Shown here: positions 36,813-61,596 of the stretch, piece by piece
How the letters are laid out: each line of letters begins with the position of its first letter
Position numbering within the stretch: position 1 is the first letter of the stretch
UHGV virus genome: UHGV-1455077
DNA: 64,000 nucleotides
Source: a virus
Strand: one strand, 5' to 3'
Notes under the pieces: generated by a model
Databases searched by the model: none
Told to the model about the DNA's origin: nothing
Seen by the model: only the letters and a program-made list of their open reading frames with translations
Position numbers and translations under genes: made by a program

Positions 36813-36814
36813 AT

Positions 36815-45350: not shown

Positions 45351-45652
45351 TATTTTACTCCAAACTTTTTTGGGTCATCATATTTTTGAATTATTGTTCC
45401 ATCATTACAAATAACATAATCTATTATATAATATGTAATAGAATTACACATTCTAACACAACCTCTATCTTCATATTCTGTATAGGATTTAATTAAAAAG
45501 CTTTTAGCCCCACCAAAACTATCACATTTTTCCTCTATTTGTTTAATATCACTATTATTTAATGGAGCAGAAGATGAATAATCATCGCACGCAAATAATA
45601 AAATTGTACTTAATATAATTAACATTATTTTATGAATATTTAAAAATTTCAT
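45350..45652 (-). CDS. putative lipoprotein
   Basis: Signal peptide with lipobox MKFLNIHKIMLIILSTILLFAC|DDYSS. RBS is GGAAG. Confidence 0.5.
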   Translation of the reverse strand: MKFLNIHKIMLIILSTILLFACDDYSSSAPLNNSDIKQIEEKCDSFGGAKSFLIKSYTEYEDRGCVRMCNSITYYIIDYVICNDGTIIQKYDDPKKFGVK

Positions 45653-45674
45653 TTCTATACTTCCTGTTTTTTAA

Positions 45675-45703
45675 CAAGGTTAAGGCATTATGCCTTAACC
45701 TTG
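45675..45703. other. strong 13-bp-stem hairpin overlapping the RtcB stop codon
   Basis: CAAGGTTAAGGCA-tta-TGCCTTAACCTTG is GC-rich for this genome. It lacks a clear downstream U-run on the minus strand. Confidence 0.5.
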
Positions 45704-46906: not shown

Positions 46907-46932
46907 TTTTTATTTCCTTTGCTTAATAAAAT

Positions 46933-46966
46933 AAAAACTATGATATATAAATACCATAGTTTTTTC
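46933..46966 (-). terminator. terminator hairpin
   Basis: AAAAACTATG...CATAGTTTTT, followed on the minus strand by TTTTATTTTATT. Confidence 0.45.
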
Positions 46967-46991
46967 ATTTGTCAAGAGAGAAAATATATTT

Positions 46992-47336
46992 TTATTGTTT
47001 TTCTTCAAAAATATTCCTTAATCCTTGGCATCTTTGTCCATTATTCCAATAGTTATTAAAATTATCCTTAATAAATTTACCATCTTTTTTAGCTGATACT
47101 TGATAATCTGGTAAGTTTATTTCTTTTTCCCATAATTTACTTTCAATTTCATTTAATAATTTTACAAATTTTTTCTGCCATTTTGCTGGCATAGATTGTA
47201 AAACACTTCTTGGTAAAACTAAATAATGAGCATAAGATAATCCAAAGAAAGAATGTATAAAATCATCTTCATCATAATTTTTTATAAATTTTAATTTATT
47301 TGATATTAAATAATACATTCTTTTTAAAATATTCAT
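46992..47336 (-). CDS. hypothetical protein
   Basis: 114-aa ORF directly downstream of glyA. Confidence 0.4.
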   Translation of the reverse strand: MNILKRMYYLISNKLKFIKNYDEDDFIHSFFGLSYAHYLVLPRSVLQSMPAKWQKKFVKLLNEIESKLWEKEINLPDYQVSAKKDGKFIKDNFNNYWNNGQRCQGLRNIFEEKQ

Positions 47337-47338
47337 TT

Positions 47339-48766
47339 TTAATCCTTTTTATAAATTGGATGTTCTAAACAAAAATGTTCTACACCTTCTTTAATAAGCA
47401 TTAAAGCGGCTTCTTCATTTGTTAATTTTCTTCCTTCACAATTTTCAAAAGATTCTTTAATAAAATCAATTCCTTCATAATCATAATCACCTTCTAAAAT
47501 TTCAATAATATGAGCAATCTGATGAGCAATCCACGCACAATCATTTTCAGTTGCACCTCTTGTTGTTATTGCCGCTGTTCCCAATCTAATACCAGAAGTT
47601 TCAGATTTTGGTTTAGGGTCATCTTTAACAGCATTTTTATTAACAACAATTCCAACTTCAGATAATTTATCTTCAACTTGTTTACCTGAAATACCATATT
47701 TTCTTACATCAAGAAGAATCAAATGATTATCAGAACCACCAGAAACCATTGGAATTCGTCTTTCTTCAAAAACTTTTTCCATTGCTTTAATATTTTTAAG
47801 AATTTGTTCTTGATATTGTTTAAATTCTGGTGTTAATGCTTCTTCAAAACAAATTGCTTTACCAGCAATAATATGTTCAAGAGGGCCTCCTTGAATGCCA
47901 GGAAATACGGCTTTATCAATTTTTTTACCTAATTCTTCGTTATTTGAAATAATAATACCACCACGAGTACCACGTAGAGTTTTATGAGTAGTTGAAGTAA
48001 CAACATCTGCATAAAGAAGTGGAGATGGATGTAAACCAGTTGCAACTAATCCTGCAATATGAGCCATATCAACCATTAAATAACAATAAGTATTATTATA
48101 TATTGATGAAATTAACTCATTTGTTACATCAATTGTTTTTCCATAAAATCTTACAGTATTATTCACAAAACCTGGATTTTCCACTACGGAGTGAATAATA
48201 TAATCTTTTAAGTCTTTATTATATTTGTCAACAATTTCTCGAATTCTTTTAAAATCAATAATTCTTGAATATGCAGATGCACCAACAATTAAAATTCTTG
48301 GAAAATGTTGATAAAGTTTTTCTTTAATTTCGTCATAATTAATAATACCATCTTCATCTAAACCATACGAAACTGCATTATATAATTTACCTGATGCAGA
48401 TACTTTACTTCCGTGTGTTAGATGACCCCCTGCATCCAATGACATACCTAAAATTGTATCATCTGGTTTACATAAAGCTAAATAAACAGCCTGATTTGCT
48501 TGTGAACCTGAATGAGGTTGAACATTAGCCCATTTACAATTAAATAATTCTTTACATTTATCAATTGCATATTGTTCAATTTCATCAACATATCGGCAAC
48601 CACCATAATATCGTTTATTTGGATAACCTTCGGCATATTTGTTTGTTAAAATTGAACCAACTACGTTCATAATATCTTTTGATACATAATTTTCAGAAGC
48701 AATCAAACAAATTTCTTCTTCTTGTCTTCTTCTTTCTTTTTCAATAATATCAAATACTTTATTCAT
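47339..48766 (-). CDS. glyA: serine hydroxymethyltransferase (GlyA) with a ~45-aa insertion
   Basis: PLP-lysine motif [15 protein letters not shown] and HLTHGS are present. 475 aa versus ~417 typical. The extra segment lies between REIVDK and [10 protein letters not shown]. Confidence 0.9.
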
Positions 48767-48986
48767 CTTTAATATAATATCCTTTACTCATTTCTGAATT
48801 AATTGACATTTTTACTTTATATTGAGAAACAAAATCTTCAACTCTTGAAATAATATTTTTCTCATCAATTAAATCTGTATTGATAGGTAATACTAATTCT
48901 TTATCACCCATTGTCAATTTTATTTCAGTTGCATTAAATACTTTATCATTTGTTCTCCAAGGTATATTTTGTATTTCAATTTTCAT
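48759..48986 (-). CDS. hypothetical small protein
   Basis: 75-aa ORF overlapping the glyA start by 8 nt. It shares an LPI(N/D)TD motif with the next small ORF. Confidence 0.4.
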
Positions 48987-48988
48987 TA

Positions 48989-49162
48989 ATTTTCCTCATC
49001 AAAATTTTTCATCAATTTCTTTAATTCTTTTAAATTAATTCGGCGTGTATCAATAGGTAACGTTATTGAAATATCATAAACATCAATGGTTAAATCCAAT
49101 CCTTGAATTGTTTCACCATTTTCTTCAAAATTGACTTCTTCAATTTCATAAATATCACTCAT
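48989..49162 (-). CDS. hypothetical small protein (58 aa, below the ORF-track cutoff)
   Basis: The minus-strand ATG at 49162 opens MSDIYEIEEVNFEENGETIQGLDLTIDVYDISITLPIDTRRINLKELKKLMKNFDEEN. It resembles the 75-aa neighbour. Confidence 0.35.
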
Positions 49163-49172
49163 ATATACCTCA

Positions 49173-49421
49173 TTAATTACAATAATTTTTATGATTTGTT
49201 CTATAACAAGTTGATTTTGCCTTATAAGGTCTTCTTTCCAAGGTTACTTCCTTATATGTTTTTGGTTCATAAACTGTTCTATAAGTTGTATTACGATAAA
49301 TTACTTCAACTGGTTGAGATACTGTGTATGATTGTTCTCGACCATAATAACAATTATCACACATTGATGAACAAGCAGTTAATGCCAACACCAAACTAAA
49401 AATAGATAACAATTTCTTCAT
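49173..49421 (-). CDS. putative lipoprotein
   Basis: Lipobox MKKLLSIFSLVLALTAC|SSM. 82 aa. Confidence 0.5.
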   Translation of the reverse strand: MKKLLSIFSLVLALTACSSMCDNCYYGREQSYTVSQPVEVIYRNTTYRTVYEPKTYKEVTLERRPYKAKSTCYRTNHKNYCN

Positions 49422-49422
49422 A

Positions 49423-49665
49423 TTATTCTCCTTCTTTAACTTCTTCTACTTCTTCTGTTTTTGGCATTGTTCTATCTAAAAATGAAAACAAAAATAATGT
49501 TCCTTTTTCCAATGTTTCTGGACGAGAAGTATGTTTTCTAAAACCTTTTGTATAATGATTCCAACCTTTTCCTTCTACAAAATTATAGCAACGACCACTA
49601 TCTTTACGTTTTTGAACAACTTTTTTATGTTCAAGTTTCATACGATAAGTTTTTAATTTACCCAT
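49423..49665 (-). CDS. hypothetical small basic protein
   Basis: 80-aa ORF. Confidence 0.4.
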   Translation of the reverse strand: MGKLKTYRMKLEHKKVVQKRKDSGRCYNFVEGKGWNHYTKGFRKHTSRPETLEKGTLFLFSFLDRTMPKTEEVEEVKEGE

Positions 49666-49714
49666 TTATTTTTCTCCTAAAATATTTTTAATAATTGTAA
49701 CATACTATTTTAAT

Positions 49715-49966
49715 TTAATCAATTATATCAGCCAAAATCATTTGTAATCTTTTATATTGGCTCTCATATAAAAACATTGAACCGTCTTCTTGCCAATATT
49801 CTTTTACCCATTTTTTTAATTTTTTTATTAAATCTTTATCGGATTGATTAACTAATTTTCTAACATTAATTGATGTCAATTCATCTAAAAATTGTTGTGG
49901 ATTTTCATAATATTCAATGACTTTCATTCTTTCCATAAATATATCCTTTTTATGGAAATATATCAT
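49715..49966 (-). CDS. hypothetical small protein
   Basis: 83-aa ORF. Confidence 0.4.
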   Translation of the reverse strand: MIYFHKKDIFMERMKVIEYYENPQQFLDELTSINVRKLVNQSDKDLIKKLKKWVKEYWQEDGSMFLYESQYKRLQMILADIID

Positions 49967-49990
49967 TACATTTTTAAATTGTCAATAAAT

Positions 49991-51118
49991 TTACGATATT
50001 GATACTAAAAATAATGTATCATCATACGGAGTATTTTCTAATTCATTTGGTATATCAGGCATTATTTCAAAATCTAAATCATACTTATCTTTACATTGTA
50101 AATACATTAAAATTATCGTTAATGATGCTGTAATTAAATCATCGTGTCCTGAACCATTTGCTGAATATGATGTTGCCATCACAGATTTATTAGAAAAATT
50201 AGATAGTTCTGTTAAATAATCACGAGAAAAAATGTGAAATCTATTTGTTTCAAATAAAATTTTTAATTGTGAACAAGCTTTAGGTTTTGTAATTTTAGTA
50301 GTTGTAAACCCTTTTCTTTTATTACCAATTTCATTTATTAAAGTTGCTCTTTTAATATATGGTTGACCATATTGACTATCTTCAATTTGCTTTAATGCAC
50401 ATAAAAAACCTTCTGCTGACCCATTATTTTCTAAAGACCAATAAATTTCAGGATGCTTATTCCCTTTTTCTTTAATATTAATATACATCCAATCAGTTAA
50501 AACTTTCATTTTTTCAATTTGGTCATTTTGATTTAATTTATCAGATTTCCATTCAGCAACCTGTATAAATCCTGGAAATTCAAAAACTTGAATTGCCGCA
50601 AAATCTCCTGATAAACCCATAGATGTATCAATAGCAACCAAATATTTTTTCCAAGGTTTTAAATCTTGATAAAAACGTATATCTTCATCAACAACAAATT
50701 TATATGTAATTTTATTATTATCAATTTCTAAAATTTTTTGGCGTAAAATCATTGAATCAATTAAAGAATTTGATTTACCAATAAATTCACAATTATGAAC
50801 TAAAATATCATTAGCAAAAAATCTATTTCCATCTGAAACATTTAAAATATCATAAACATCTGTAACTTCACCTTGTTGAATATCTTTTATTTGTTCCAAA
50901 CCATTTTTTGTTAATATCCAATCATCAATTTTTAATTTATTTGCTTCTATACAAGTATATAAATCAATATATATATTATGGTCAGCGGTACAATTAATAA
51001 TATTACCGTTTTTTAATATAATATTTAATGTGGGCATTGATGGTATTTTTTTAATACCATCAAATTCTGCCCACCCATCTGGCGTTAAAATTTTATATTT
51101 TTTATTATTTTTTATCAT
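49991..51118 (-). CDS. terminase large subunit, C-terminal nuclease half, preceded by a 109-aa split-intein C fragment (IntC-TerL-C)
   Basis: Residues 1-109 carry intein block B (NCTADHNIY, the TxxH motif) and blocks F/G (GEVTDVYDILNVSDGNRFFANDILVHN|C). The extein CEFIGKSNSLIDSMIL aligns with T4 gp17 [16 protein letters not shown]. The downstream YLVAIDTSMGLSGDF is typical of the terminase nuclease domain. It has its own ATG, 11 nt after the RNase H stop. Confidence 0.8.
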   Translation of the reverse strand: MIKNNKKYKILTPDGWAEFDGIKKIPSMPTLNIILKNGNIINCTADHNIYIDLYTCIEANKLKIDDWILTKNGLEQIKDIQQGEVTDVYDILNVSDGNRFFANDILVHNCEFIGKSNSLIDSMILRQKILEIDNNKITYKFVVDEDIRFYQDLKPWKKYLVAIDTSMGLSGDFAAIQVFEFPGFIQVAEWKSDKLNQNDQIEKMKVLTDWMYINIKEKGNKHPEIYWSLENNGSAEGFLCALKQIEDSQYGQPYIKRATLINEIGNKRKGFTTTKITKPKACSQLKILFETNRFHIFSRDYLTELSNFSNKSVMATSYSANGSGHDDLITASLTIILMYLQCKDKYDLDFEIMPDIPNELENTPYDDTLFLVSIS

Positions 51119-51129
51119 TACTTTATTTA

Positions 51130-52185
51130 TTATCCTTTTGGATATGAACGACTAAAGTAACCAGTAAAAGTCGGAGCAATTTCCAAAAGTTTAGCAAGAT
51201 TCCATTTTGTTAAATATTGCATTAAACGTATACCAACCAAATCAATTTGTTGTGTTTTAACTGAATTCATTATATGATTATCAATATTACTTCTTAAATC
51301 ATCAGGAATTTCTCTTAAATCAATAATTTTTTTATTAAATTCATAACTTTCTTTAACAATATGCTTATTTCCTAAAGGGTCTTCCCAAGTTGAATTCATA
51401 AATGTTTGCCAATTATAACCTCTTTCTTTTCTATCAGCAAATGCATCTAAAATTCCAACAGTTTTTTTTGTTGATTTTTCTCTAATACCTGGATAAGCTG
51501 AAAAAATATTATCAGATTTATCACCACGAATACATTTTGTAAATAATGCATATTCAATCCAATCATCCATTGGAACTAATTTATCACCCTCTTTCCATAA
51601 CATATCAGTTCTTGATACCGAAATTTTACCATCTTTTAAAGTAAATTTCATTGGTAAATGTTTATCATCTGCTGTAAACATACAAGATTCAGTAATAATT
51701 CTATCATCCATTGTATTATAAATAATAACATTCTGATTAACTAATTGAACAAAGTCATTATCTGTTGAAACAATAATTACATTATCATTTGGATGTAATG
51801 CTATAAAACGAGCAATTAAATCATCAGCTTCTGCCTTTGGATAATCTAAAAATGATATATTTGTAGATTCTTTTAAAAATGGTATAAAATCCTTTTCAAA
51901 AATATCTTTTAATTCTTGTTCTTTTTGAATTTCATCAGGCGTTTTATCTTGTAAACGTTCAATACGATTTGCTTTATATTGTGGATAAATGTCTTTTCTC
52001 CAAGTTCCTTTACCATCAGCACAAATAATAGTATGTGTTGGCTTAAATTTATCACACGCTTTTTTAATCATATAAAACATTGTATGTAATAGCATACCTT
52101 TACGTAATTCATTATCCTTTTCCGTAATAGTATACATTGCTCTAAAAAATAAATTATAAATATCAATTAATATAAAAGTATTCAT
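51130..52185 (-). CDS. 5'-3' exonuclease / flap endonuclease (T4 RNase H-like)
   Basis: FILIDIYNLFFRAMY and ICADGKGTWRKDIYPQYKANR match the FEN/PolA 5'-nuclease N-terminal motifs (compare Taq LLVDGHHLAYRTF and FDAKAPSFRHEAYGGYKAGR). Confidence 0.85.
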   Translation of the reverse strand: MNTFILIDIYNLFFRAMYTITEKDNELRKGMLLHTMFYMIKKACDKFKPTHTIICADGKGTWRKDIYPQYKANRIERLQDKTPDEIQKEQELKDIFEKDFIPFLKESTNISFLDYPKAEADDLIARFIALHPNDNVIIVSTDNDFVQLVNQNVIIYNTMDDRIITESCMFTADDKHLPMKFTLKDGKISVSRTDMLWKEGDKLVPMDDWIEYALFTKCIRGDKSDNIFSAYPGIREKSTKKTVGILDAFADRKERGYNWQTFMNSTWEDPLGNKHIVKESYEFNKKIIDLREIPDDLRSNIDNHIMNSVKTQQIDLVGIRLMQYLTKWNLAKLLEIAPTFTGYFSRSYPKG

Positions 52186-52556
52186 TCGCCAATCTCACTA
52201 AAATCTTTATATTGTTGAGTATCTGTATCCCAAATACATTTTTTGGTTTTCATATCACCCATTTTTTCATTCATTAATGTATATGTATATTCATCTAATG
52301 GTATTAAATTAATAAGTTTTGCTTCCTCATTATGAATAACTTTATCTTCAATTGTAAAATAAAATTTAAAATTATTATTCTTACAATATTTTTTAAGAAT
52401 TTTTGCACATTCCGTAGTCATATCATCTTCAAATTCTTCTTCATTATTGTATTCATCCTGTTTTTCTTTCATCTGCAAACAAATTTCTGCTAATTCCTTT
52501 GTCATATCATCAATAATAATTTTTTCTTTTTCCATTATTTCCTTAAGTTCATTCAT
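52182..52556 (-). CDS. hypothetical acidic protein
   Basis: 124-aa ORF overlapping the RNase H start by 4 nt. Confidence 0.45.
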   Translation of the reverse strand: MNELKEIMEKEKIIIDDMTKELAEICLQMKEKQDEYNNEEEFEDDMTTECAKILKKYCKNNNFKFYFTIEDKVIHNEEAKLINLIPLDEYTYTLMNEKMGDMKTKKCIWDTDTQQYKDFSEIGE

Positions 52557-52561
52557 ATTTT

Positions 52562-53197
52562 TTATCCCATTAAAATTGTATTATCACCTAATTTTCGTTT
52601 TGTTAAATATCTTTTTTCTTCTTCTGACTCATTTTCATCAAGCATTGAAGTAATATCATCTAAATCCATATTTGCCATAAAAAACAATTTTAACCATTGT
52701 TCGGCAATTTCTTCATCTGTATCACCTGGAAGCCCTTTTTTACGCATATTACTAATAAATGTTTTATTATAAACAACTTCAACCATTAAATTATCAGGGT
52801 CATTCTGCTCATCATAATCAGTATGAATAGCTACCCACGGTTTTCCAAGTAAATCATTTTTTTCTTTGCAATAATCAATTTCACTAATTTTTTTATACTT
52901 ATGCTTTAAATCAATTTCATTTATTAATCTTTCAGTTTCAGGCTTATCAATATCTCTAATTTGAAGTAATTGATATTCATAATCAAAATCATCAATTTTA
53001 TTATATTTTTTTTGAATTTCTAATTTTCTTAACTTATAATCAGCTAATTCTTTTAAATTTTCAGATGGATAATCTAATTTCAATATTTCCATTTCCTTAT
53101 CATACCCATTTTCCATTTCATAATCAATTTTAGCATATTCTCTTGCCTTGCCTGTAAGTAATAATCCTTTAAATGTTAATCCAAATGGTATTTTCAT
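52562..53197 (-). CDS. hypothetical protein
   Basis: 211-aa ORF. Confidence 0.5.
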   Translation of the reverse strand: MKIPFGLTFKGLLLTGKAREYAKIDYEMENGYDKEMEILKLDYPSENLKELADYKLRKLEIQKKYNKIDDFDYEYQLLQIRDIDKPETERLINEIDLKHKYKKISEIDYCKEKNDLLGKPWVAIHTDYDEQNDPDNLMVEVVYNKTFISNMRKKGLPGDTDEEIAEQWLKLFFMANMDLDDITSMLDENESEEEKRYLTKRKLGDNTILMG

Positions 53198-53261
53198 TTA
53201 TAAATCCTTTTTATAATTGTTAACCAATTATAAAACAAAAATATTGAAAAATTCAATAATA

Positions 53262-53295
53262 AAAAACCTCTAAAAAATTTTAGAGGTTTTTTATT
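53262..53295 (-). terminator. terminator after the sheath gene
   Basis: AACCTCTAAAA-aa-TTTTAGAGGTT followed by TTTTTATTT. Confidence 0.65.
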
Positions 53296-53312
53296 TATTA
53301 TACTAATAAAAA

Positions 53313-56300
53313 TTAGCTATTACTACTTGATAATGCTCCAGTACGAACAATACGAATAGGAATATAAATTTGTTCAACACCTTTAACAATTTCAATAGCA
53401 ATTTCTGCCCACAATTCTTTACGACCAATTCTTTCAGAAGTATTAACTGAATTATCAGTAACTAATGTATAGTCATATAATTCATCTCTTGATACATAAT
53501 CATTTAAGATGCTTCTTAATGTTTTATCAAAATCACGTCTTAAAGCTTCTGTATTTGGTTGGAAGAAGAATGGTAAGCAAGCGGCATCTAATTCACGTTT
53601 TAATCTTAAAATAGTTAAGATTGCGTGTTCATCAGATAATGAAGATGAATAACTATTTTCAGTATTTTCACCCCAGAATAATAAACCTGTATTACGCTGT
53701 GGCATAATTGGGTTCATTGATTGAGCAACAATAACTTCACCCAAACTATCTCTAACTGTTACTGGTGCATATTCATTTTCATCTGTAATATAACCAACAG
53801 ATGCTAAATTCTTAACTTGACCATATTGAGTACCAGCGGCAAACATACCTCTTGGTAATACTAATAAGTTTTTCATTTTTGCAACTGAAGTTGGAACAGC
53901 AATATCTGAACCATCAACATTTGAAGTTAATCCCATTGGTGGATATTGACGTGTGATATAAGGACTTCTAATAACACGACCATCTAAACCGTGTGCTGAT
54001 GCATTATTTTGATTTGAACCCCAAGCAATAATATCATTAGCTTTTGGAGCTAATCTTGCTGGAGAATCACTGACAATATAGAACATTTCTTTTTTATCAG
54101 TATTCAAACTAATTAATTCATCATCCAATTCTGGATAACCTGTACAAGTTGCAAAGAAGAAGTCATAATCTTGAGAACGAATTTCATCATTAGAATTAAT
54201 AGCTTCTGCTAATGCTTTTATAATCATTGCTCTTTGAGCTTTTCGACCAAATAATCCTGCTCCATCAGTTGAATTACCTGAAATTGTTGCCCAACGAGTT
54301 GTTTTTGGGTTTGTTGAAGAACCTGGTGTTGGGAAATCTTTAGAAGCACCAACAGTAAATGTTCCACCTAATTCCTTAACAGCATTTTGATATTCATTTG
54401 TCATTTCTTTAACATTATTTGTTGAGTATAATGTATTGAATAACAACATACCAGCGGCATATGTTTGAGGATTTGGACAGTTAGGGTCAACATAATCTGA
54501 AATTAATAAATCTTCTGATTTTGTTGAAAATGGTGTATGAGTTGAATCTGCATAAGCAGGGCCTGCATTCTCACGTGCATCTGCAAATACAACGCCTAAA
54601 GGTGTAGTTTGGTCAGTATTATCAACTAATTCCCATTCACCTTCATAATATCTATACATTGTTGGATATTCATTTGCGGCTGTATCAATCCATAAATCAT
54701 ATTCTTGTAAAGCAGAACCATCTGCGTGTTGTGTTGGCTGTTCAGAAGTTACAAAAATGTCTGCACATTCGTACATATTTTTATAACCTTTCCATTCATC
54801 ACCATCATTAACCATAATATCAACATTTAATGCATCATTAAACCATAATGTACCATCTGTTGCAATTTCAGTTGGTTCAACAGCACTTGCAATATAAGTT
54901 GGTTCACTCCATTTTCCTAATTCTCCAGAAGCAATACCAACAGTTTCTAAGATTTTACCATCGGCAACATCTTGGAAATCAATAGTATTACCTGTTGAAG
55001 AAACTAATCTTAAATAACCTTCAGTTGTTACATCAGCAACAATTGTTGGAATTTTAGCATTATTAATTGCTTTAGCTAAATATTCGACTGTTGTTCCATA
55101 AGCTCTAATTGTATAAGTTTTAACTTCTGTTCCAATTAAAGTTCTAATTGTAAATGCTTCTCCTGATGTAATTGTTGGATTTGAAACTGTACCAACAACT
55201 TTTAATCCTAATGAACCATATTGTGCTAATCTTGTTTCTGCTAAACCTTCATTATCATATTTAACAATGATTGAACCAGAATTTAAAGAAGCACCTAAAA
55301 CTCTTTCAGCTTCAATAAATGAGCCATACATTGGCATTTTAATTGTTTTCCAAGAATCATTAGTTGAATTATATTGTTTCATAATATAATTTACACCATT
55401 ATTTGGTTCTGTTGTTTTAACCCAAATTGAACCTTGTACTGAACCATTTGGAACTTGAGAATGAGTTTTATGAACTAATGAAACGGCATTAACAACTGCT
55501 TCATCACCATTCATTACAAAACCTAAAGTTTCTAATGCTTTTCTTGAATCTTGAGTAATAGTTAATAAAGTTGCTGTATTTTTAATAACCAATGCATTAT
55601 TTTCATTGATTGCAACAATATTTTCAATTGATGCATTATTAATATCTTTAACAGCATCATCAATTTTTGTAGTTGATGATACACCACTTAATGTTACTTC
55701 TGTACCATTAATTGTAATTTTAGCTCCTGTATCATAAGTTCCATTTGCTTTACCTTTAGCACTTGAAGGGAATTGTAACATCCATTCATTTGAACCTAAT
55801 TCATACCATTCACTTGCAATATTTTCATAAATAACTTGTTTATTTCCTGATGTAACAACAGCAATATCATTATTTGCACCGTATGTTCCAAGAGGTTTAC
55901 CATCTTCACCAATTTCATTTTCTGATGGAATTAATACATTTTCAATTTTATCCCAAGCTAAAGCAGGACGAGAATTACCATTTGCTCTAAATAAACCATA
56001 TGAAGTTTCCGCAGTATCAAACCATAATGTTTGATTTGGAACGTTACTTGTTGGTTCTGCTTGAGTTGCCTGTAATTGTTTTAAGTCAATATCAGCTCTA
56101 AGTGCATATGCTAAAGATGAACTTCCTAAAGCACTATACAAAGCGTATAAACCAACTTCATTTAATTCATCACCTTGTTGAACTGTTCCATCATTTGTTG
56201 TATAATTTGGTATACCATATGTATCAGTAACATCTTTTTGTGAAGTCATAACAAGTAATTCATTAGCAACTGATTTTGAGGTACCAGGTGCAATTTCACC

Positions 56301-56426
56301 TGTACTTTCGTCAATAACTTTATCTTGTTCTGTCGCAAAGATATAAAGAGGAATTATCGGAGAAACACCTGTTCCATATGATGATTCATCTGTTATTTCA
56401 ATGTGAGATTTTGCTAATTCTGACAT
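53313..56426 (-). CDS. tail sheath protein (gp18-like, extended to 1037 aa)
   Basis: The C-terminal region (FFATCTGYPELDDE...LLFWGENTENSYS...LRLKRELDAACLPFFFQPN...YIPIRIV) corresponds to the conserved C-terminal domain of T4 gp18. Extra insertion domains are common in sheath proteins. Confidence 0.8.
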   Translation of the reverse strand: MSELAKSHIEITDESSYGTGVSPIIPLYIFATEQDKVIDESTGEIAPGTSKSVANELLVMTSQKDVTDTYGIPNYTTNDGTVQQGDELNEVGLYALYSALGSSSLAYALRADIDLKQLQATQAEPTSNVPNQTLWFDTAETSYGLFRANGNSRPALAWDKIENVLIPSENEIGEDGKPLGTYGANNDIAVVTSGNKQVIYENIASEWYELGSNEWMLQFPSSAKGKANGTYDTGAKITINGTEVTLSGVSSTTKIDDAVKDINNASIENIVAINENNALVIKNTATLLTITQDSRKALETLGFVMNGDEAVVNAVSLVHKTHSQVPNGSVQGSIWVKTTEPNNGVNYIMKQYNSTNDSWKTIKMPMYGSFIEAERVLGASLNSGSIIVKYDNEGLAETRLAQYGSLGLKVVGTVSNPTITSGEAFTIRTLIGTEVKTYTIRAYGTTVEYLAKAINNAKIPTIVADVTTEGYLRLVSSTGNTIDFQDVADGKILETVGIASGELGKWSEPTYIASAVEPTEIATDGTLWFNDALNVDIMVNDGDEWKGYKNMYECADIFVTSEQPTQHADGSALQEYDLWIDTAANEYPTMYRYYEGEWELVDNTDQTTPLGVVFADARENAGPAYADSTHTPFSTKSEDLLISDYVDPNCPNPQTYAAGMLLFNTLYSTNNVKEMTNEYQNAVKELGGTFTVGASKDFPTPGSSTNPKTTRWATISGNSTDGAGLFGRKAQRAMIIKALAEAINSNDEIRSQDYDFFFATCTGYPELDDELISLNTDKKEMFYIVSDSPARLAPKANDIIAWGSNQNNASAHGLDGRVIRSPYITRQYPPMGLTSNVDGSDIAVPTSVAKMKNLLVLPRGMFAAGTQYGQVKNLASVGYITDENEYAPVTVRDSLGEVIVAQSMNPIMPQRNTGLLFWGENTENSYSSSLSDEHAILTILRLKRELDAACLPFFFQPNTEALRRDFDKTLRSILNDYVSRDELYDYTLVTDNSVNTSERIGRKELWAEIAIEIVKGVEQIYIPIRIVRTGALSSSNS

Positions 56427-56503
56427 ATTTTCACTCCTATTAAATTAAATTATTTTTATTGTAAAAATAATTATAAAAACTTGTCTAAAAGTCTTTACAT
56501 ATA

Positions 56504-56533
56504 TTTATGAAATAGGGTAAAAATAAAGGGGTA
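56504..56533 (+). promoter_or_regulatory. sigma70-like promoter (TTTACA -N18- TAAAAT)
   Basis: Upstream of the leader hairpin and the gene at 56594. Confidence 0.35.
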
Positions 56534-56550
56534 AACACATAACGAAATAA

Positions 56551-56581
56551 TTTGAAAGATATTTATTAAATATCTTTCAAA
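56551..56581 (+). promoter_or_regulatory. perfect 15-bp-stem inverted repeat in the 5' leader, abutting the RBS
   Basis: TTTGAAAGATATTTA-t-TAAATATCTTTCAAA ends where RBS AGAGGA begins. No T-run follows, so it is not a terminator. A covarying copy precedes the paralog at 63768..63796. Confidence 0.55.
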
Positions 56582-56593
56582 GAGGATTTTATT

Positions 56594-57010
56594 ATGACTG
56601 ATATTAGTAAAATAAACATAGAAAGAATCAATGAGTTATCAACGAAATTAGATAATTTTAATACACAAATTAATAATATTAATTCAAAAATAAATTCAAT
56701 GAAATATGTTATTGATGCTAATTCTGATGGTAATCGTTGGTACCGAAAATGGAATGATGGATTTATTGAACAAGGCGGAAATAATATTATAAATTTAAAT
56801 AATGCTAATGAAGGAACAATTACATTTTTAACTCCATTTAATACTACTTCTTATATACCTCAAATAACTGTATATAATAGTAATGGTTCTTGGGTTTATG
56901 GTTGGATTAAATGGGATTCACGAACAAAAAATAATTTTATTTATTTTACTGCTGGTAGTAGAGCTGGTGATACTTCTAATGGAGCTTTTTGGTATGCTTA
57001 TGGATATTAA
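56594..57010 (+). CDS. hypothetical protein, paralog family A (N-term M-DISKI-N-RIN ... WY-KW-DGFIEQGG)
   Basis: 138 aa. A paralog begins at 63807 with the same N-terminal pattern. The stop overlaps the TerL-N stop (TTAA). Confidence 0.55.
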   Translation: MTDISKINIERINELSTKLDNFNTQINNINSKINSMKYVIDANSDGNRWYRKWNDGFIEQGGNNIINLNNANEGTITFLTPFNTTSYIPQITVYNSNGSWVYGWIKWDSRTKNNFIYFTAGSRAGDTSNGAFWYAYGY

Positions 57011-58083
57011 TAATATTCATATAACATTTCAAGAGAAAGACTTCTTATATATCCTTTTTCATCCATAATTTGCACAATATTATTTCCACCAATACAATTA
57101 TATTCTCGTTCAAAACGTTCAGCACCAACTTTTTTAATTTCAGCTTTTGCCCAATTTTCATCTTTTAATGGGCAAGCATCCCATCTAACTAATTGACTTT
57201 GAAATCCATTATTTCCATATGATTTTTTTGGAACAACATTAACAATTGTATTTTCATCTCTTAATGATTTAGCATATTCTTCTGCTTGGTCTTTATCTTT
57301 AAATAAATGAAAATCTCTATATAATTCACCATTAATTTCTAATATATAATCATCTGGTATATTCATTCCATAATCATCAATTTTGTTTTTAGCTCCTGAC
57401 CATAATCTAAAAAATAAATCTGTTTCAGAAATAGGAGTTGAAGTAATAAACAATTTACCTTGTGTAGCTGATAATGTTGGTGATAATGCACCATAAAATT
57501 CTTCTTGTTTCTCTAAAGCTTTATCTCCAGAATCTTGTACACCAATAAAAGCAAACTCATCACAATAAACAATTGCAGGAGAAATACCACGGGGAGCTTT
57601 AATAGTTGATGGTCTTACGTGAATTTCAGACCCATTATCAAAAACCATTTTTGATTTGTTATCTTCTTTTAATCCTTTCTTCAAAAAATCAGGACAATTT
57701 TCATACACACCTTTTATTTTTCCGAGGTTTTCCGATGCGGCACGCAAATCTTGAGCAGTTACCAAAATAATTTTATTATTAAATACCATTGCGTACCAAA
57801 GTAAATAAATGGCTGTTGTAATTGTTTTACCATTCTGACGAGAAAATAAAGAAATTAAAGAATGGTAATTATGCATATTAAACATCATTTCTCGTTGATA
57901 ATCAAATGGAATATATTGTTCCAAACCATTTCTATTAACCCAACAACAATGTTCGGCAAAAAACAACGCCCCATTAATTGGGTCATAAACTTTACGATAA
58001 ACCATTTTTTGAACATCTGTCATCTTTTTAAATGGTTTTGTTTTTTTAATAACACCAGTACCTTGAGGTAAAACAATTTTCAT
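57007..58083 (-). CDS. terminase large subunit, N-terminal ATPase half, ending in a 29-aa split-intein N fragment (TerL-N-IntN)
   Basis: Walker A SRQNGKT matches T4 gp17 SRQLGKT, and Walker B IVYCDEFAF matches T4 MLYIDECAF. FDYQREM aligns with T4 LADYQRDM. The extein end ...AERFEREYN aligns with T4 ...AQFRQEHTA. The final 29 aa, CIGGNNIVQIMDEKGYIRSLSLEMLYEYY, form intein block A (Cys1 plus hydrophobic strands). The ORF track extends to 58170, but the ATG at 58083 has RBS AAAGGAAAAATT. Confidence 0.8.
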   Translation of the reverse strand: MKIVLPQGTGVIKKTKPFKKMTDVQKMVYRKVYDPINGALFFAEHCCWVNRNGLEQYIPFDYQREMMFNMHNYHSLISLFSRQNGKTITTAIYLLWYAMVFNNKIILVTAQDLRAASENLGKIKGVYENCPDFLKKGLKEDNKSKMVFDNGSEIHVRPSTIKAPRGISPAIVYCDEFAFIGVQDSGDKALEKQEEFYGALSPTLSATQGKLFITSTPISETDLFFRLWSGAKNKIDDYGMNIPDDYILEINGELYRDFHLFKDKDQAEEYAKSLRDENTIVNVVPKKSYGNNGFQSQLVRWDACPLKDENWAKAEIKKVGAERFEREYNCIGGNNIVQIMDEKGYIRSLSLEMLYEYY

Positions 58084-58103
58084 AATTTTTCCTTTATTAA
58101 AAT

Positions 58104-58111
58104 TATTTATA
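58104..58111 (-). promoter_or_regulatory. late-promoter-like motif TATAAATA upstream of TerL-N
   Basis: Minus strand reads CGAATATAAATAATTT, 20 nt before the ATG at 58083. Confidence 0.35.
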
Positions 58112-58149
58112 TTCGCATATTTATAAAATATCTTGTTTTCAGTTTTACA

Positions 58150-58157
58150 ATAAATAT
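58150..58157 (+). promoter_or_regulatory. late-promoter-like motif ATAAATAT
   Basis: 31 nt before the ATG at 58189. Confidence 0.35.
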
Positions 58158-58188
58158 TCTTATAAAACATAGAAATATAAGGTTGATT

Positions 58189-59895
58189 ATGAAATATACC
58201 TCACTTAAAAATGATATTGTGAATATTTTACATAGTTCAGATTATGATTTATATTTAAAATTTTATGATGAAGATGGTCGTAACACTTTAGATACAGAAA
58301 AATCTGAATGGTGTTATATTAGTAATTATAACATTATAATAAAATTTATGAATGACGAAAATTCAGTTATTCAAATATGGAAAGATAAAAATACATTAGA
58401 TGAAAATATGAAACATATTATCCAGAGAATTAGAGAACTTTCTGGATTAAATGGGGTACAAGTTCAAATCAGAATTTATGATGATTTAAATCAAAGAAAA
58501 ATTTACAATTTAATTAAAAATGATATTTTAAAACAAAGAGAAAGTGAAGATATGGATGAATCAGTAAACAATGATGATAAAGTATTAATTGAAACATTAT
58601 ATAATATTGTTAATACTGCAAAGGATACAAAACGCCCATCTGATTTTTATATTTCAGAAGCAATGCAATTAGAAAATACAAGAAAAATTTTTTCTGAAAT
58701 TATTAAAGAAATTTCTTATTTAAATGCCTTCAAAAATACATCAATATCAGAAACTTTAAAACCTTTAATGTCATTAAAAACATTAGATGAAGTTAAAGAA
58801 TTTTCGAAATCAATTAAAAATTCTGAAATTATTAAAGAAAATGCAAATAATATCAAAAATATTGCATCATTTGTTAAAAAAGAATATTTAAATAACGGAG
58901 ATTTTATTGTATCAAAACCAAGAACATTATTTGTTCTTGAAAATGTTAAAGTTTATACAGCCAAAGAAAAAAATAATCGTGAAAATTTAATTAATGCTTA
59001 TAATCAATTATTGTCTTTTACTCAAAATGCAACAAAAGGTACAGATATAATTCGTGAAATTAGAAATAATAAAATTTGTGAAACTTTTAATGTTTCTCGT
59101 AAAGAATTAGTTGATTTATGGTTATCAAGAACAAACAATTTAAAAATTGAACCTAAAAAAGTTTTTGTTGTTGAAAACTATAAAGGTGAAAAAGTTATTT
59201 TTAATGAAGCAATGAAAAACGGTATCAAAGCATTAGCTCAATACATTAATAATGGTGGCTCTCGTGATGATATAATTTGTAAAAATATTATGTTAGAAAC
59301 TGTTAAATATAATCAAATTTCTGATTTTATTAAAACATATCAAGATAATTATAAAGTTAGAAAATTTTTACCAAAATTTAAAAATATTTTTAGTGAAAAT
59401 GCAAATAAATTATCATCAGCTTATTTAAATTTTAATAAAGAATTATTTGAATCAGTTGAAGAAGAAATTGATTATACTTCACAATATCAAAAACTTTGCA
59501 AAGATATGGGCGTTGAACATCCAGCTATTAAATATCTTGCAATTGAAAATGCAAAAAAAGATGCGGAATATTGTTCAGTTTTAATGGAACAAACCTTATC
59601 CGATGAAACAATTTTAACAGAAGGATTAAAACCTTACATTCAAAATCCATTTACATTATATAATATTGTCAAAACAATTATGGATAATCAAATAATATTA
59701 AATAAAACATTAGTTGAAAGTGTAAATGATTCTAATATTAAATCGGTAGCAACTAATTTATATAATAAAATATGTTTTGAAGATAATATAGTATTAATGC
59801 CTATTGCTTCTTCATTATTTAATATTATGCATACAAAAAATTTAAATGAAAGTAAAATTACATATTTAAATACCTTAATTAAATATATAAAATAA
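58189..59895 (+). CDS. hypothetical protein
   Basis: The ORF track starts at TTG 58183. The ATG at 58189 (MKYTSLKN) follows TAAGG. About 568 aa. Confidence 0.5.
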   Translation: MKYTSLKNDIVNILHSSDYDLYLKFYDEDGRNTLDTEKSEWCYISNYNIIIKFMNDENSVIQIWKDKNTLDENMKHIIQRIRELSGLNGVQVQIRIYDDLNQRKIYNLIKNDILKQRESEDMDESVNNDDKVLIETLYNIVNTAKDTKRPSDFYISEAMQLENTRKIFSEIIKEISYLNAFKNTSISETLKPLMSLKTLDEVKEFSKSIKNSEIIKENANNIKNIASFVKKEYLNNGDFIVSKPRTLFVLENVKVYTAKEKNNRENLINAYNQLLSFTQNATKGTDIIREIRNNKICETFNVSRKELVDLWLSRTNNLKIEPKKVFVVENYKGEKVIFNEAMKNGIKALAQYINNGGSRDDIICKNIMLETVKYNQISDFIKTYQDNYKVRKFLPKFKNIFSENANKLSSAYLNFNKELFESVEEEIDYTSQYQKLCKDMGVEHPAIKYLAIENAKKDAEYCSVLMEQTLSDETILTEGLKPYIQNPFTLYNIVKTIMDNQIILNKTLVESVNDSNIKSVATNLYNKICFEDNIVLMPIASSLFNIMHTKNLNESKITYLNTLIKYIK

Positions 59896-59901
59896 CATAT
59901 T

Positions 59902-59984
59902 TGCTCCAAAAGGTATTAAATAATAACACTTTTTGGAGCATATATATCAATTAAATGCTCCTAATTAGGAGCATTTAATTTTTT
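59902..59984. terminator. two adjacent terminator hairpins between convergent genes
   Basis: TGCTCCAAAA...TTTTGGAGCA at 59902..59940, then the perfect palindrome AAATGCTCCTAATTAGGAGCATTT at 59953..59976 followed by AATTTTTT. Confidence 0.6.
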
Positions 59985-61490
59985 CACAACATCTTTTGAA
60001 AATGCTTTCATAAATTTCAAAATATAAGTATCTTCTCCATTTTTTTCTTCATTAATACGATTTCGTTCCTCTCTTGTTAATGGTCTAAATGGATTATCAT
60101 TTTTACTCAATGCCATATCAATTTGAATTTGGCGATTTAACAAATTAAAACCAACAAGATTTGTAATTGCTTTATGACCACCTGACATTTTTTCAATTAA
60201 ATTTATTAAAGAAACACGCTGATTATTCATAAATTTTATCATTCTCATTGATTGTTCAGCACGAGCAGGATTCATATTTTCACACCAATATTTTGACATT
60301 CTTAATCCCATAGAAATGCCTATTTTATTATCAATGTCAACATCAAATTCTTTTCCACAATTTGGAAAATTACTATCAAAATCAACCATATTAAAACCAA
60401 TTAATAGTTTTTCTTTTTCAACTTCAATACCTTTTTCAAATTCTGCTTTTATAGCCAACAAAGAAACTGTCTTATCTTTCAACCAATGAGATTTAGCATA
60501 TTGTTCAAGAAACATATCATTTAAGACAATTTTCCCTAAATCAATTTTATCATCAACATTGGGATTCCACGGATTTCTTGAAACTTGCATCATACCCATC
60601 TCATCCCAAATCATAATAAAAAATTTAGCTTGTGGAAAAATTCTAAAAGCAGTATATCGTTCATAAGAACCAACTTTTTTCATATTTCCACCACCAACCT
60701 GAACAATACAATCACCATTTAAACATAATTGCCCATTCTTTAATATATCAATAATATTATAGTCATCTGTAATCTGACTTTTTGACTTTTGGTCATTAAA
60801 ATATGCTTCAACATTTTCGTTAATTTCTTCTGGTTTTTTATACCATCTTGAATCTTCTTTATTATTAGTATCAATCCAATCAATCAATTGTTTATAGATA
60901 GATACTAATGATGGTGAACATTGCAATACTAAATTAGACAGCCAAGCATTTTTATTTTTATAAGTTAATAGCAACTTATTACAAGCCAACGCCATCTTTA
61001 AATGTCGTTGTAAATGATTTTCATTTTTATCAAATTTAAATACAGCATTTCCAACTTCTTCAGGCATTATATTATATTCATTAAAACTTACTGAATCAAT
61101 CATATCAATTGCTTTTTCATCATCAGTAGAAAAAATACCACTTCCAATAATTGAAGATATAGTAGATGCATTTGATTTTGAATGTCTAAAATGAGTTGAT
61201 GAACCATCATAAACAATTTGTGATTGATGATGGTCAGTATGTATTTGAATAAATTTTTTTCCGTGAGAAAAATCAACCATTACTCCCATATTTCCTTCTT
61301 CTGGAGCTGGAATGTTATATTCACCATCTCCATAATTTACTTTATGAGCCGCAACAACTTCAATATCATATTTTCTTAAATATTCCTTCATTGCTAAAGC
61401 ACTTGTTACACCATCTAAGTCAATATGAAAATAAATTTCAGCTTTTTTATATTTTTTAGCTAATTGTTTAATATTTCTAATACCACTCAT
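59961..61490 (-). CDS. DHH-family phosphoesterase (RecJ/NrnA-like)
   Basis: Motif I is FHIDLDGVTSA. The DHH motif lies in IQIHTDHHQSQ. 509 aa. Confidence 0.7.
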   Translation of the reverse strand: MSGIRNIKQLAKKYKKAEIYFHIDLDGVTSALAMKEYLRKYDIEVVAAHKVNYGDGEYNIPAPEEGNMGVMVDFSHGKKFIQIHTDHHQSQIVYDGSSTHFRHSKSNASTISSIIGSGIFSTDDEKAIDMIDSVSFNEYNIMPEEVGNAVFKFDKNENHLQRHLKMALACNKLLLTYKNKNAWLSNLVLQCSPSLVSIYKQLIDWIDTNNKEDSRWYKKPEEINENVEAYFNDQKSKSQITDDYNIIDILKNGQLCLNGDCIVQVGGGNMKKVGSYERYTAFRIFPQAKFFIMIWDEMGMMQVSRNPWNPNVDDKIDLGKIVLNDMFLEQYAKSHWLKDKTVSLLAIKAEFEKGIEVEKEKLLIGFNMVDFDSNFPNCGKEFDVDIDNKIGISMGLRMSKYWCENMNPARAEQSMRMIKFMNNQRVSLINLIEKMSGGHKAITNLVGFNLLNRQIQIDMALSKNDNPFRPLTREERNRINEEKNGEDTYILKFMKAFSKDVVKKLNAPN

Positions 61491-61544
61491 TTTTCATCTT
61501 TCTAAAAGTTAATATTAAAACTGTATATATCATATTTTTTATAT

Positions 61545-61573
61545 TTGTCAAGCATTTTATCCATAAATATTAT
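61545..61573 (+). promoter_or_regulatory. sigma70-like promoter (TTGTCA -N17- TATTAT)
   Basis: 24 nt upstream of the ATG at 61597. Confidence 0.45.
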
Positions 61574-61596
61574 TATATTTAAAGGAAATAATATTT

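Follow-up and report, generated by a model that had tools for sequence, protein, structure and literature searches.

A jumbo phage large terminase encoded by two separated genes and probably joined by an atypical split intein

The large terminase (TerL) of the phage studied here very probably consists of two polypeptides that are joined by an atypical split intein of the AceL-TerL/GOS-TerL/Cat family. Short-N/long-C split inteins in phage terminases are a kind known since 2009–2014; the distinguishing point here is that the two halves are genomically uncoupled. Our reading builds on sequence features, family membership in sequence and predicted fold, colinear exteins, conserved catalytic residues and a reproducible assembly, all of which were observed directly. 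The phage (UHGV-1455077) has a jumbo genome of ~290 kb and 26% GC and is associated with animals or humans. The window, that is, the whole stretch of DNA that we analysed, covers 64 kb of it.

Two terminase genes with intein fragments at their facing ends

A first-pass annotation had described an ATPase half ending in a short intein fragment and, some distance away on the same strand, an ORF opening with a long one. The residues it quoted and both ORFs agree residue for residue with the ORF listing. The two genes are composed as follows.

57007..58083, minus strand: TerL N-half gene, 358 aa plus stop, ATPase domain and IntN (Pfam Terminase_6N, 2e-10)
57097..58083, minus strand: N-extein, 329 aa, ending in ...FEREYN (KVGAERFEREYN), delimited by alignments to P0102 and T4 gp17
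57010..57096, minus strand: IntN, 29 aa, Cys1 followed by beta1-beta2 and a helix (CIGGNNIVQIMDEKGYIRSLSLEMLYEYY); stop at 57007..57009
49991..51118, minus strand: TerL C-half gene, 375 aa plus stop, IntC and nuclease domain (Pfam Terminase_6C, 2.7e-5)
50792..51118, minus strand: IntC, 109 aa, with its own ATG, ending in ...FFANDILVHN (CatC, 6dsl_B, E 3.5e-12)
49994..50791, minus strand: C-extein, 266 aa, starting with Cys+1 (CEFIGKSNSL..., CEFIGKSNSLIDSMIL), RNase H-like nuclease domain; stop at 49991..49993

The ORF caller extends the N-half to an ATG at 58170. We prefer 58083 as the better start because AAAGGA lies 7 nt upstream of it, because the cluster representative P0121, which is 100% identical to the N-half, is 358 aa long, and because the alignment to the intein-free TerL P0102 starts at residue 5. 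The N-half has both Walker motifs, A (GKT, residue 85) and B (IVYCDE, residue 171). In the C-half gene a purine-rich AAAAGGA lies before the ATG, and IntC carries block B as C-T-A-D-H, block F as VYDILNV and block G as ILVHN. Block B thus lies inside IntC, as the short-N/long-C split of the first-pass annotation would have it. Since the Terminase_6N match falls on the N-extein and the Terminase_6C match on the C-extein, the host protein is a T4-type large terminase. The C-half shares a 90% cluster with GenBank DAF56640.1 ('large terminase protein, Myoviridae sp. ctWb16').

The fused fragments are an intein by sequence, profile and predicted fold

As a single sequence, the fused IntN and IntC matched CatC in the PDB over 102 residues; IntN against CatN (6dsl_A) gave a weak match (E 0.38, 26 residues). 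A profile of 13 paired IntN and IntC sequences, one row of which is the window's own, had 35 matches in the PDB, all of them Hint/intein-type domains. The best were CatC (1.8e-19), gp41-1 (6e-15) and VidaL (1.7e-10), the last running across both the IntN and the IntC part. Searched over the six-frame segments of the window, the HMM of these 13 pairs hit two places only: IntC (E 1.6e-47) and IntN (i-E 3e-5), the latter being the last 29 residues of the N-half. All other segments had E>0.6. The pairing of IntN and IntC in the window is well beyond chance. At 44757..44879, tblastn gave a weak echo of blocks F and G of IntC (E 0.14), which was considered as a second intein and dismissed as chance; it lies in a 77-aa ORF to which the family HMM gives E 1.7.

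The AF2 model of the fused intein has a pLDDT of 85.6 and a pTM of 0.73. Over the IntN part the pLDDT is low (55–72) because the alignment rows gave no depth there. Foldseek searches with this model returned Hint/intein-type structures for all of the top 50, with TM scores of 0.80 for VidaL and 0.80 for Cat (normalised to target). The profile search and the predicted fold both point to the Hint/horseshoe fold of a class 1 intein. Together with the sequence match they uphold the idea, already voiced in the first-pass annotation, that the fused fragments form a Hint domain. The Pfam model Intein_splicing (PF14890) scores the C-half at E 4e-4 and 20.6–25.4 bits, under its gathering cut-off of 35.8, in a match that spans blocks F and G alone; the same model is listed for many C-half homologues in the precomputed Pfam column. 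This sub-threshold score is a matter of the model's sensitivity for the TerL intein family and no evidence against a Hint fold.

Residues needed for splicing are invariant

All class 1 residues are present: C1 (CIGG...), T44 and H47 (CTADH), H108-N109 and C110. Alignments A1, A2 and A5 show these catalytic residues to be invariant, and A2 and A4 do so for Cys1 of IntN. Among 23 diverse homologues of the C-half, T44, H47, D90, N103 and N109 of IntC do not vary, nor does C110 (Cys+1), and many further extein columns in this alignment are invariant as well. The architecture is kept just as widely: more than 100 metagenomic C-half clusters, at 91% to 33% identity, retain IntC plus nuclease, and ~60 N-half clusters retain ATPase plus IntN, these ~60 relatives terminating in C[LI]xGD..v.ImDE.G.I..vSL..LY.fY-stop like the IntN of the window. 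The sampled sets show no variation at Cys1, the block B T and H, the block F Asp, the terminal Asn or Cys+1. At large distances IntC and the extein are equally conserved (0.32–0.43 for IntC and 0.32–0.34 for the extein).

One could also argue that the intein fragments are splice-dead and now serve merely as a non-covalent heterodimerisation module in a two-subunit TerL. Split intein fragments bind tightly ahead of any chemistry, the split lies at a hinge between domains that might do without a covalent link, and in more distant family members the penultimate His is replaced by Ser or Lys. However, the window copy keeps this His (ILVHN), and residues that matter for the chemistry only (Cys1, block B Thr/His, Asn, Cys+1) are invariant in dozens of diverged homologues. 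Docking alone would not preserve such residues, and the fragments are therefore unlikely to be mere docking modules; reports of splicing by close relatives in the family (PMC11766414) argue in the same direction.

For a splicing intein, homology and conservation suggest the following course in vivo. After translation of the N-extein (329 aa) with IntN (29 aa) from 57007..58083(-) and of IntC (109 aa) with the C-extein (266 aa) from 49991..51118(-), the short IntN (two beta strands and a helix) would dock into the near-complete Hint fold of IntC. An N-S acyl shift at Cys1 would be followed by trans-thioesterification at Cys+1 and by cyclisation of the terminal Asn109. The outcome would be a TerL of 595 aa, and DNA packaging would probably depend on the reaction.

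The exteins abut without a gap

Spliced in silico, the 595-aa TerL reads ...EREYN-CEFIGK... at its junction. Over its full length it shares 51% identity with P0102, a contiguous intein-free TerL of 597 aa, and the junction is gapless. The N-extein pairs with residues 6-335 of P0102, and with T4 gp17 up to FRQEHT. The spliced product also aligns to T4 gp17 with no gap at the junction (FEREYN/CEFIG..., the slash marking the junction), and P0094 has the empty site (...SREFE/CRFIGKS...). Hence, removal of the intein yields a host protein that is colinear with P0102 and T4 gp17, and the claim of the first-pass annotation that the exteins abut exactly holds for T4 gp17 and for P0102. The junction presumably is the hinge between ATPase and nuclease, going by T4 gp17 structures.

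Five genes separate the halves

Between the stop of the N-half and the ATG of the C-half lie 5,888 nt with five ORFs. By Pfam and PHROGs they are those that had been listed before (the tail sheath, a FEN/RNase H, two hypothetical genes and a plus-strand gene).

56594..57010, plus strand: gene 1, 138 aa (Pfam Gp53-like_C 3e-5, exactly at the gathering score; weak phrog_15547)
53313..56426, minus strand: gene 2, tail sheath, 1037 aa (phrog_10581 2.8e-168; Phage_sheath_1C)
53258..53295, minus strand: terminator-like hairpin, 17-bp stem and T run, directly 3' of the sheath gene (consensus match)
52562..53197, minus strand: gene 3, virion structural protein, 211 aa (phrog_13349 5.5e-22; no Pfam match)
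52182..52556, minus strand: gene 4, 124-aa ORF (no PHROG or Pfam match)
51130..52185, minus strand: gene 5, FEN / T4 RNase H-type 5'-3' exonuclease, 351 aa (5_3_exonuc_N 2.9e-26, RNaseH_C, phrog_107)

Gene 1 is convergent with the N-half and overlaps its stop by 4 nt, and the exonuclease gene terminates 11 nt short of the ATG of the C-half. A homing endonuclease domain was found in none of the five ORFs with Pfam and PHROGs. The hairpin at 53258..53295 weakly suggests that the C-half belongs to another transcription unit than the sheath gene and the N-half; by consensus match only, 2 terminator-like hairpins were found versus 2.0 expected by chance. A sigma-70 promoter scan of this 26% GC DNA gave 69 sites versus 67.9 expected. 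We assume that the halves are co-expressed. No tRNA genes were found in the window.

For a metagenomic source it is natural to ask whether the gap arose in assembly or from a chimera, or whether the halves are joined as RNA, since group I introns interrupt the TerL genes of other gut jumbo phages, the Jug phages (PMC12880540). Both versions are hardly credible here. The same interval is found in an independent assembly (IMG/VR contig L008) that is colinear, 99.5% identical and different only by a 434-bp indel. It is also syntenic in L003/L004; one of the syntenic versions is a 66%-identical relative, and others are at ~54–74% identity. Misassembly, which the first-pass annotation had named as a way to be wrong, thus does not explain the gap. 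The interval is made up of five undisrupted ORFs; three of them match known families strongly, and one is encoded on the other strand. An in-frame intein fragment and a stop codon close the N-half, and translation of the C-half can start from an ATG of its own, with AAAAGGA upstream. Moreover, one relative has the reverse order, with the C-half 12.8 kb upstream of the N-half, and therefore cis RNA splicing could not bridge the halves. A group I intron as in the Jug phages is out: intein fragments flank the break, the ORFs are intact and the order is inverted in a relative.

Another possibility is that a terminase gene has broken up, leaving these two ORFs as remnants, and that an intact TerL outside the 64-kb window packages the DNA. 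The window is about a fifth of the ~290 kb genome, and paralogues occur at times in jumbo phages. However, tblastn found no second TerL-like sequence in the window, and none of the few contiguous TerL-like proteins among the homologue matches could be linked to this genome. Both halves are full-length and without frameshifts, conserved from 91% to ~33% identity over more than 100 clusters. They are colinear with intact TerLs, with Walker A/B and the invariant extein columns of the C-half preserved. We consider it very unlikely that such genes are remnants.

The arrangement varies in a large clade of jumbo phages (~260–290 kb, hundreds of contigs). Proteins identical to the halves occur on 101 and 148 contigs of up to 293 kb, the 101 being those with P0121 (up to 290 kb). 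The gap from N- to C-half is 5–6.7 kb among clade members. For the P0072 phage (L005), a search within ±10 kb on its 283-kb contig found no N-half. Some relatives have TerL in three pieces and carry another atypical split intein within Walker A; this P-loop site has Thr+1. The relatives L089/L090 show a classical fractured arrangement with a DUF559/Vsr-like gene, at the P-loop site instead. A megablast search of the 8.2-kb region against 50,697 GenBank phage records gave no match, and hence no cultured close relative among them.

Comparison with known split inteins

Naturally split TerL inteins and the consensus Cat intein (PDB 6DSL) were reportedly described by Thiel in 2014, Bachmann and Mootz in 2015 and Stevens in 2018. 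The natural TerL split inteins that have been characterised are slow or cold-adapted, with an optimum of 8 °C for AceL-TerL. AceL-TerL and GOS-TerL are reported to trans-splice at measured rates, and the family has been engineered into Cat (PMC11766414). In TerL atypical split inteins IntN has 25–37 aa and IntC 104–122 aa (PMC11766414; PMC2677866), and the S2 split position lies after the first helix (PMC13014065). An IntN of 29 aa before a stop and an IntC of 109 aa with its own ATG and block B fit this type. The first-pass annotation was right about the atypical type, but not about its novelty: from metagenomes, a T4-type large terminase with an atypical split intein had been reported in 2009 (PMC2677866), and AceL-TerL, GOS-TerL, Cat and PX29 are further cases.

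The window shares with AceL-TerL, GOS-TerL and Cat the TerL host, the S2 split and block B inside IntC; Cys1/Cys+1 nucleophiles are likewise found in AceL-TerL. We measured family similarity against Cat and compared AceL-TerL and GOS-TerL by published descriptions. Beyond the sequence and profile matches and the like predicted fold, the CatC chain ...SHACE aligns to ...VHNCE of the window, with the same start of the C-extein. In contrast to these inteins, which come from Antarctic lake or marine/freshwater metagenomes, the window belongs to an animal- or human-associated phage. The known TerL split inteins also sit in one 'fractured' locus, whereas here structural and replication genes fill 5.9 kb between the halves.

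Similar halves exist in cultured phages. In Aeromonas phage PX29, gp17A is annotated 'N-intein' and gp17B 'C-intein'. The N-halves of PX29 and Yersinia phage MHG19 end in ...QEH/C plus ~35 aa and a stop, and the C-half of MHG19 opens with an IntC of ~110 aa ending in ...THN/C, all resembling the window. Their intein sites in the TerL hinge differ from ours by one residue at most. The exteins are only ~26–31% identical to ours. Unlike in the window, the halves of PX29 and MHG19 are adjacent: PX29 has a GIY-YIG endonuclease fused to its C-half, whereas no endonuclease domain was detected between the halves here, and MHG19 has a single 236-aa ORF between the halves instead of five. Both thus show the fractured arrangement in its classical form. 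Serratia 92A1, Providencia PSTRCR_127, Vibrio EniLVp02 and VP-1 are named here on the strength of tblastn matches through the IntC part of the query.

With five ORFs, 5,888 nt and no endonuclease domain, the locus is not a 'fractured gene' (Dassa et al. 2009). It corresponds to step IV, 'genomic uncoupling', of their gene-breaking model. A rearrangement may have placed five unrelated genes between the halves of a fractured gene, and the present arrangement would be its uncoupled end-stage. Cyanobacterial DnaE and Nanoarchaeum PolB are likewise essential enzymes made by trans-splicing from two unlinked genes. Those, however, are cellular replicative polymerases with canonical splits (IntN about 100 aa, IntC about 35–50 aa), while ours is an atypical split in phage packaging. 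In addition, distance and order of the halves differ among close relatives in our clade.

Implications

Our results show that the atypical TerL split intein is more than an oddity of metagenomes, since a large and diverse jumbo phage clade has it fixed. The uncoupled end-state, so far reported for DnaE and PolB, now has a case in a phage structural module. In this clade the halves have moved away from each other and in one relative even changed places, and an essential enzyme of virion assembly would, judging from sequence, rely on trans-splicing.

It is conceivable, if rather improbable, that in this widespread clade of phages from animals and humans the split intein has turned from a tolerated parasite into a fixed, domesticated step, in which TerL is made from pieces with their own genes and probably their own transcripts and splicing gates the active enzyme. 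If this were true, splicing would set when the active ATPase-nuclease appears during infection, with TerL assembled from two pieces here and from three in the relatives with a P-loop intein.

For biotechnology, the more than 100 IntC and ~60 IntN variants are a pool of candidate mesophilic atypical split inteins. Several come from animal or human samples, their IntNs of 29–35 aa are accessible to synthesis, and the pool also holds the inteins of the second, P-loop site with Thr+1. Unless the halves are fused in silico, such genomes will be handled wrongly in TerL-based phylogenies and by completeness tools. The deposited annotations of both halves read just 'large terminase protein' or 'hypothetical protein'.

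Two genes for the halves of a terminase

The first-pass annotation had described a large terminase (TerL) divided between two separated genes, and translation returned both open reading frames with the same residues and fixed their sub-coordinates. The N-half carries the ATPase part followed by a short intein fragment (IntN), and the C-half a long intein fragment (IntC) followed by the nuclease part:

57097..58083 (-): N-extein, 329 aa, C-terminal residues ...KVGAERFEREYN
57010..57096 (-): IntN, 29 aa, CIGGNNIVQIMDEKGYIRSLSLEMLYEYY; then the stop, 57007..57009
50792..51118 (-): IntC, 109 aa, with its own ATG, last residues ...NRFFANDILVHN
49994..50791 (-): C-extein, 266 aa, first residues CEFIGKSNSLIDSMIL

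The N-half stop and the C-half ATG are 5,888 nt apart. Mechanically, the N-half frame reaches further, to an ATG at 58170. The start at 58083 is the better one, because AAAGGA lies 7 nt upstream, homology to intein-free TerL begins there, and the length fits that of the database protein P0121 (358 aa). P0121 is identical to the N-half and is found on 101 contigs, the largest of 290 kb; the commonest member of the C-half cluster is found on 148 (largest 293 kb). In GenBank the halves are DAF56639.1 and DAF56640.1, "large terminase protein, Myoviridae sp. ctWb16". The Pfam match of the N-half is Terminase_6N and that of the C-half Terminase_6C; Intein_splicing also matches the C-half, below threshold. 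The N-half has both Walker motifs intact, A as GKT at residue 85 and B as IVYCDE at residue 171.

When residue 329 of the N-half is joined in silico to residue 110 of the C-half, the resulting 595-aa protein is 51% identical, end to end and without a gap at the junction, to the contiguous intein-free P0102 (597 aa). The precise abutment of the exteins on T4 gp17 also held up: the alignment is gap-free across the junction, where FEREYN meets CEFIGKSNSLIDSM. In view of T4 gp17 structures, we place this junction at the ATPase–nuclease hinge. Among cultured phages, the TerL exteins closest to these (30–35% identity) are those of jumbo phages of 340–380 kb (CBB, GAP32, Munch and 7t3).

A known kind of split intein

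Concatenated, IntN and IntC match chain B (CatC) of 6DSL, the engineered consensus of atypical split inteins named Cat, in the PDB (E 3.5e-12, 102 residues), and weakly CatN (E 0.38). A profile of 13 true IntN/IntC pairs from loci having both halves, one of them the window's own, gave 35 PDB matches, all 35 to Hint/intein-type domains, with CatC at 1.8e-19 and gp41-1 at 6e-15. The match to the atypical split intein VidaL (1.7e-10) covers profile positions 6–144 and thus includes the IntN part. Across six-frame segments of the whole window, the same HMM matches at the two annotated places only (E 1.6e-47 and i-E 3e-5).

The fused fragments are also predicted to adopt a Hint fold, as the first-pass annotation would have it. 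The AlphaFold2 model is all-beta, with a mean pLDDT of 85.6 and a pTM of 0.73; confidence is lower over IntN, where there were no alignment rows. Foldseek returned 56 PDB matches at E ≤ 1e-3, the best 50 of which are all Hint/intein-type structures, with TM scores of 0.80 for VidaL and, normalised to the target, 0.80 for Cat.

Three inteins serve as a reference: AceL-TerL (25/104 aa, Cys1/Cys+1), GOS-TerL (37/115 aa) and the consensus Cat (30/104 aa), all of which are listed as splicing in trans, with measured rates (PMC11766414). The first helix is followed by their split site, known as S2 (PMC13014065). Judged from its sequence and predicted fold, the window's intein fits this family on every testable defining feature and hence would join a known kind rather than found a new one. 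The novelty implied at first reading is not borne out, as a gp17-like terminase was already among the "fractured genes" that Dassa et al. (2009) found in GOS metagenomes (PMC2677866). Cultured T4-like phages offer parallels: Aeromonas phage PX29 has gp17A ("putative N-intein") and gp17B ("GIY-YIG endonuclease and C-intein"), and in Yersinia phage MHG19 ...KQEH is followed by CISRDS... and a stop, a 236-aa ORF, and then an IntC ending in ...ILTHN. What is modestly new is the uncoupled arrangement of the halves, together with relatives in which TerL comes in more pieces.

Conservation and the case for splicing

Could the separation be an assembly artefact or the halves be decaying? An independent IMG/VR contig (L008) is colinear from N-half to C-half and 99.5% identical, except for a 434-bp indel, and TerL-N, sheath, two ORFs, FEN and TerL-C follow one another likewise in a 66%-identical relative (265-kb contig). 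More than 100 C-half clusters, with identities from 91% to about 33%, and some 60 N-half clusters have this architecture; the sampled alignments show no variation at Cys1, the block B Thr and His, the block F Asp, the terminal Asn or Cys+1. Among close relatives IntC diverges a little faster than the extein does, and at large distances both reach the same floor (identity 0.32–0.43 for IntC and 0.32–0.34 for the extein). Together with a single TerL in the window, these observations dispose of misassembly and of a pseudogene, and we rejected both.

We consider it highly probable that the two precursors are spliced in trans by docked IntN and IntC. IntN would dock into IntC and complete the Hint fold; class 1 chemistry, through Cys1, Cys+1 and cyclisation of the Asn, would then yield a TerL of 595 aa joined at the ATPase–nuclease hinge. 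One could also argue that the halves complement each other non-covalently, without splicing. This seems improbable to us, as the invariant catalytic residues argue against a splicing-dead docking module. Even less likely is that another part of the genome encodes an intact, redundant TerL; the 64-kb window holds no further TerL-like sequence.

Genes between the halves

PHROG and Pfam searches recovered the intervening genes that had been listed at first reading:

56594..57010 (+): small ORF convergent with the N-half, Gp53-like_C at Pfam threshold, 4-nt overlap with the N-half stop
53313..56426 (-): tail sheath (phrog_10581, 2.8e-168)
52562..53197 (-): virion structural protein, 211 aa
52182..52556 (-): ORF of no assigned function, 124 aa
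51130..52185 (-): FEN/T4 RNase H-type exonuclease, its end 11 nt short of the C-half ATG

None of the five has a homing-endonuclease domain in Pfam or PHROGs. The halves probably come from different transcription units, since a convergent gene follows the N-half, a strong terminator-like hairpin follows the sheath gene (53258..53295, minus strand; a consensus match, with 2 found against 2.0 expected), and the C-half is the last in a run with the 211-aa ORF, the 124-aa ORF and FEN. A promoter scan of the window gave 69 sites against 67.9 expected.

The interval is a site of gene-content variation, as shown by the insertion of 434 bp in L008 (L008:7485-7920). It lies between sheath and next gene, at about 53190..53199 of the window, and encodes an extra ORF of about 145 aa (MENQKEERTKF...LIYQGAN).

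Distance and order of the halves

Unlike those of the window, the halves stay together in the TerL cases described in the literature and in most relatives from IMG/VR. They are 17 nt apart in L011/L028, overlap by a few nt in L021, and are 0.5–2.7 kb apart in L006, L012, L013, L016, L019, L022, L024, L025 and L030. Within the clade of jumbo phages to which the window belongs, the spacing is 5.9 kb (window), 6.3 kb (L008), 6.7 kb (L003/L004) and 5.0 kb (L010); for L005 no N-half was found within 10 kb either side of the C-half. The order is inverted in L009/L088 (JGI 3300028591 Ga0247611_10000840, 59,169 bp). There, on one strand, FEN–TerL-C (~33.9–35.0 kb) comes first; SHMT and PolB separate it from TerL-N–sheath (~20.0–21.1 kb), which follows 12.8 kb downstream. 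The C-half is still next to FEN, as is the contiguous TerL in CBB-like jumbo phages (FEN→TerL), and the N-half is still next to the sheath gene, as in T4-like phages (TerL→sheath).

Dassa et al. predicted that endonuclease loss would be followed by "genomic uncoupling" (step IV), and this is the arrangement in the clade; earlier reports of it concern cyanobacterial DnaE and the Nanoarchaeum polymerase (PMC2677866). No terminase with such an arrangement turned up in the literature searched, of which coverage was incomplete.

Further apparent intein sites in relatives

About 18 clusters matched as N-half relatives are middle pieces of TerL (P0148, P0151-P0156, P0164, P0167-P0169, P0173, P0175, P0177, P0179, P0183, P0185, P0188 and P0189). 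These proteins of 385–406 aa begin with an IntC-like segment of about 117 aa (...YYTNGILSHN, then T), continue with the residues after Walker A, and end in the usual IntN (REYN, then C...). At two loci (L089:8435-11170 and L090:7627-10362) a 121-aa ORF comes first, then a gene for a Vsr-like endonuclease (DUF559) and then the middle piece. The 121-aa ORF breaks inside Walker A: ...LMSRQIGK is followed by CELGTTKIKVKNKKTNEIKELTLEEFFNLIKNKK and a stop, the IntN being C plus 33 aa. The third piece was not found on those contigs. By sequence, such phages appear to have a three-piece TerL with two atypical split inteins, and their P-loop (GK, then T) appears to be rebuilt by trans-splicing; that of the window's N-half is intact. 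P0094 (625 aa, ENA) has an N-terminal P-loop-site IntC and an empty site at the window's intein position (...SREFE directly followed by CRFIGKS...); hence, the two sites are occupied independently in different phages.

The TerL N-terminal ORFs at L012:782-1558, L015:2892-3659 and L022:6659-7300 end at Walker B (...ILY, then CLEGDT(S/T)..., about 35 aa and a stop), and the corresponding C-halves too begin with IntC. This suggests that Walker B is a third atypical split-intein site, in more distant relatives.

Intein content appears to vary even between close relatives, given that the window's family-B DNA polymerase (41513..44488, minus strand, 991 aa) is without an intein and its orthologue in the 66%-identical relative (L003:13568-17278, L004:13577-17287) has 1236 aa, with faint Pfam matches to Intein_splicing and LAGLIDADG.

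Nearly all large ORFs in the window are on the minus strand, GC skew is steadily negative, GC is 21–32% across 1..64000, and no tRNA genes were found in the 64 kb. Inspection by eye suggests an RtcB-type RNA ligase in an ORF located downstream of the C-half and a serine hydroxymethyltransferase (SHMT) in another, whose syntenic genes in relatives have SHMT Pfam matches; with a 2454-aa ORF, these occupy 45695..46906, 47339..48766 and 15810..23174, all on the minus strand.
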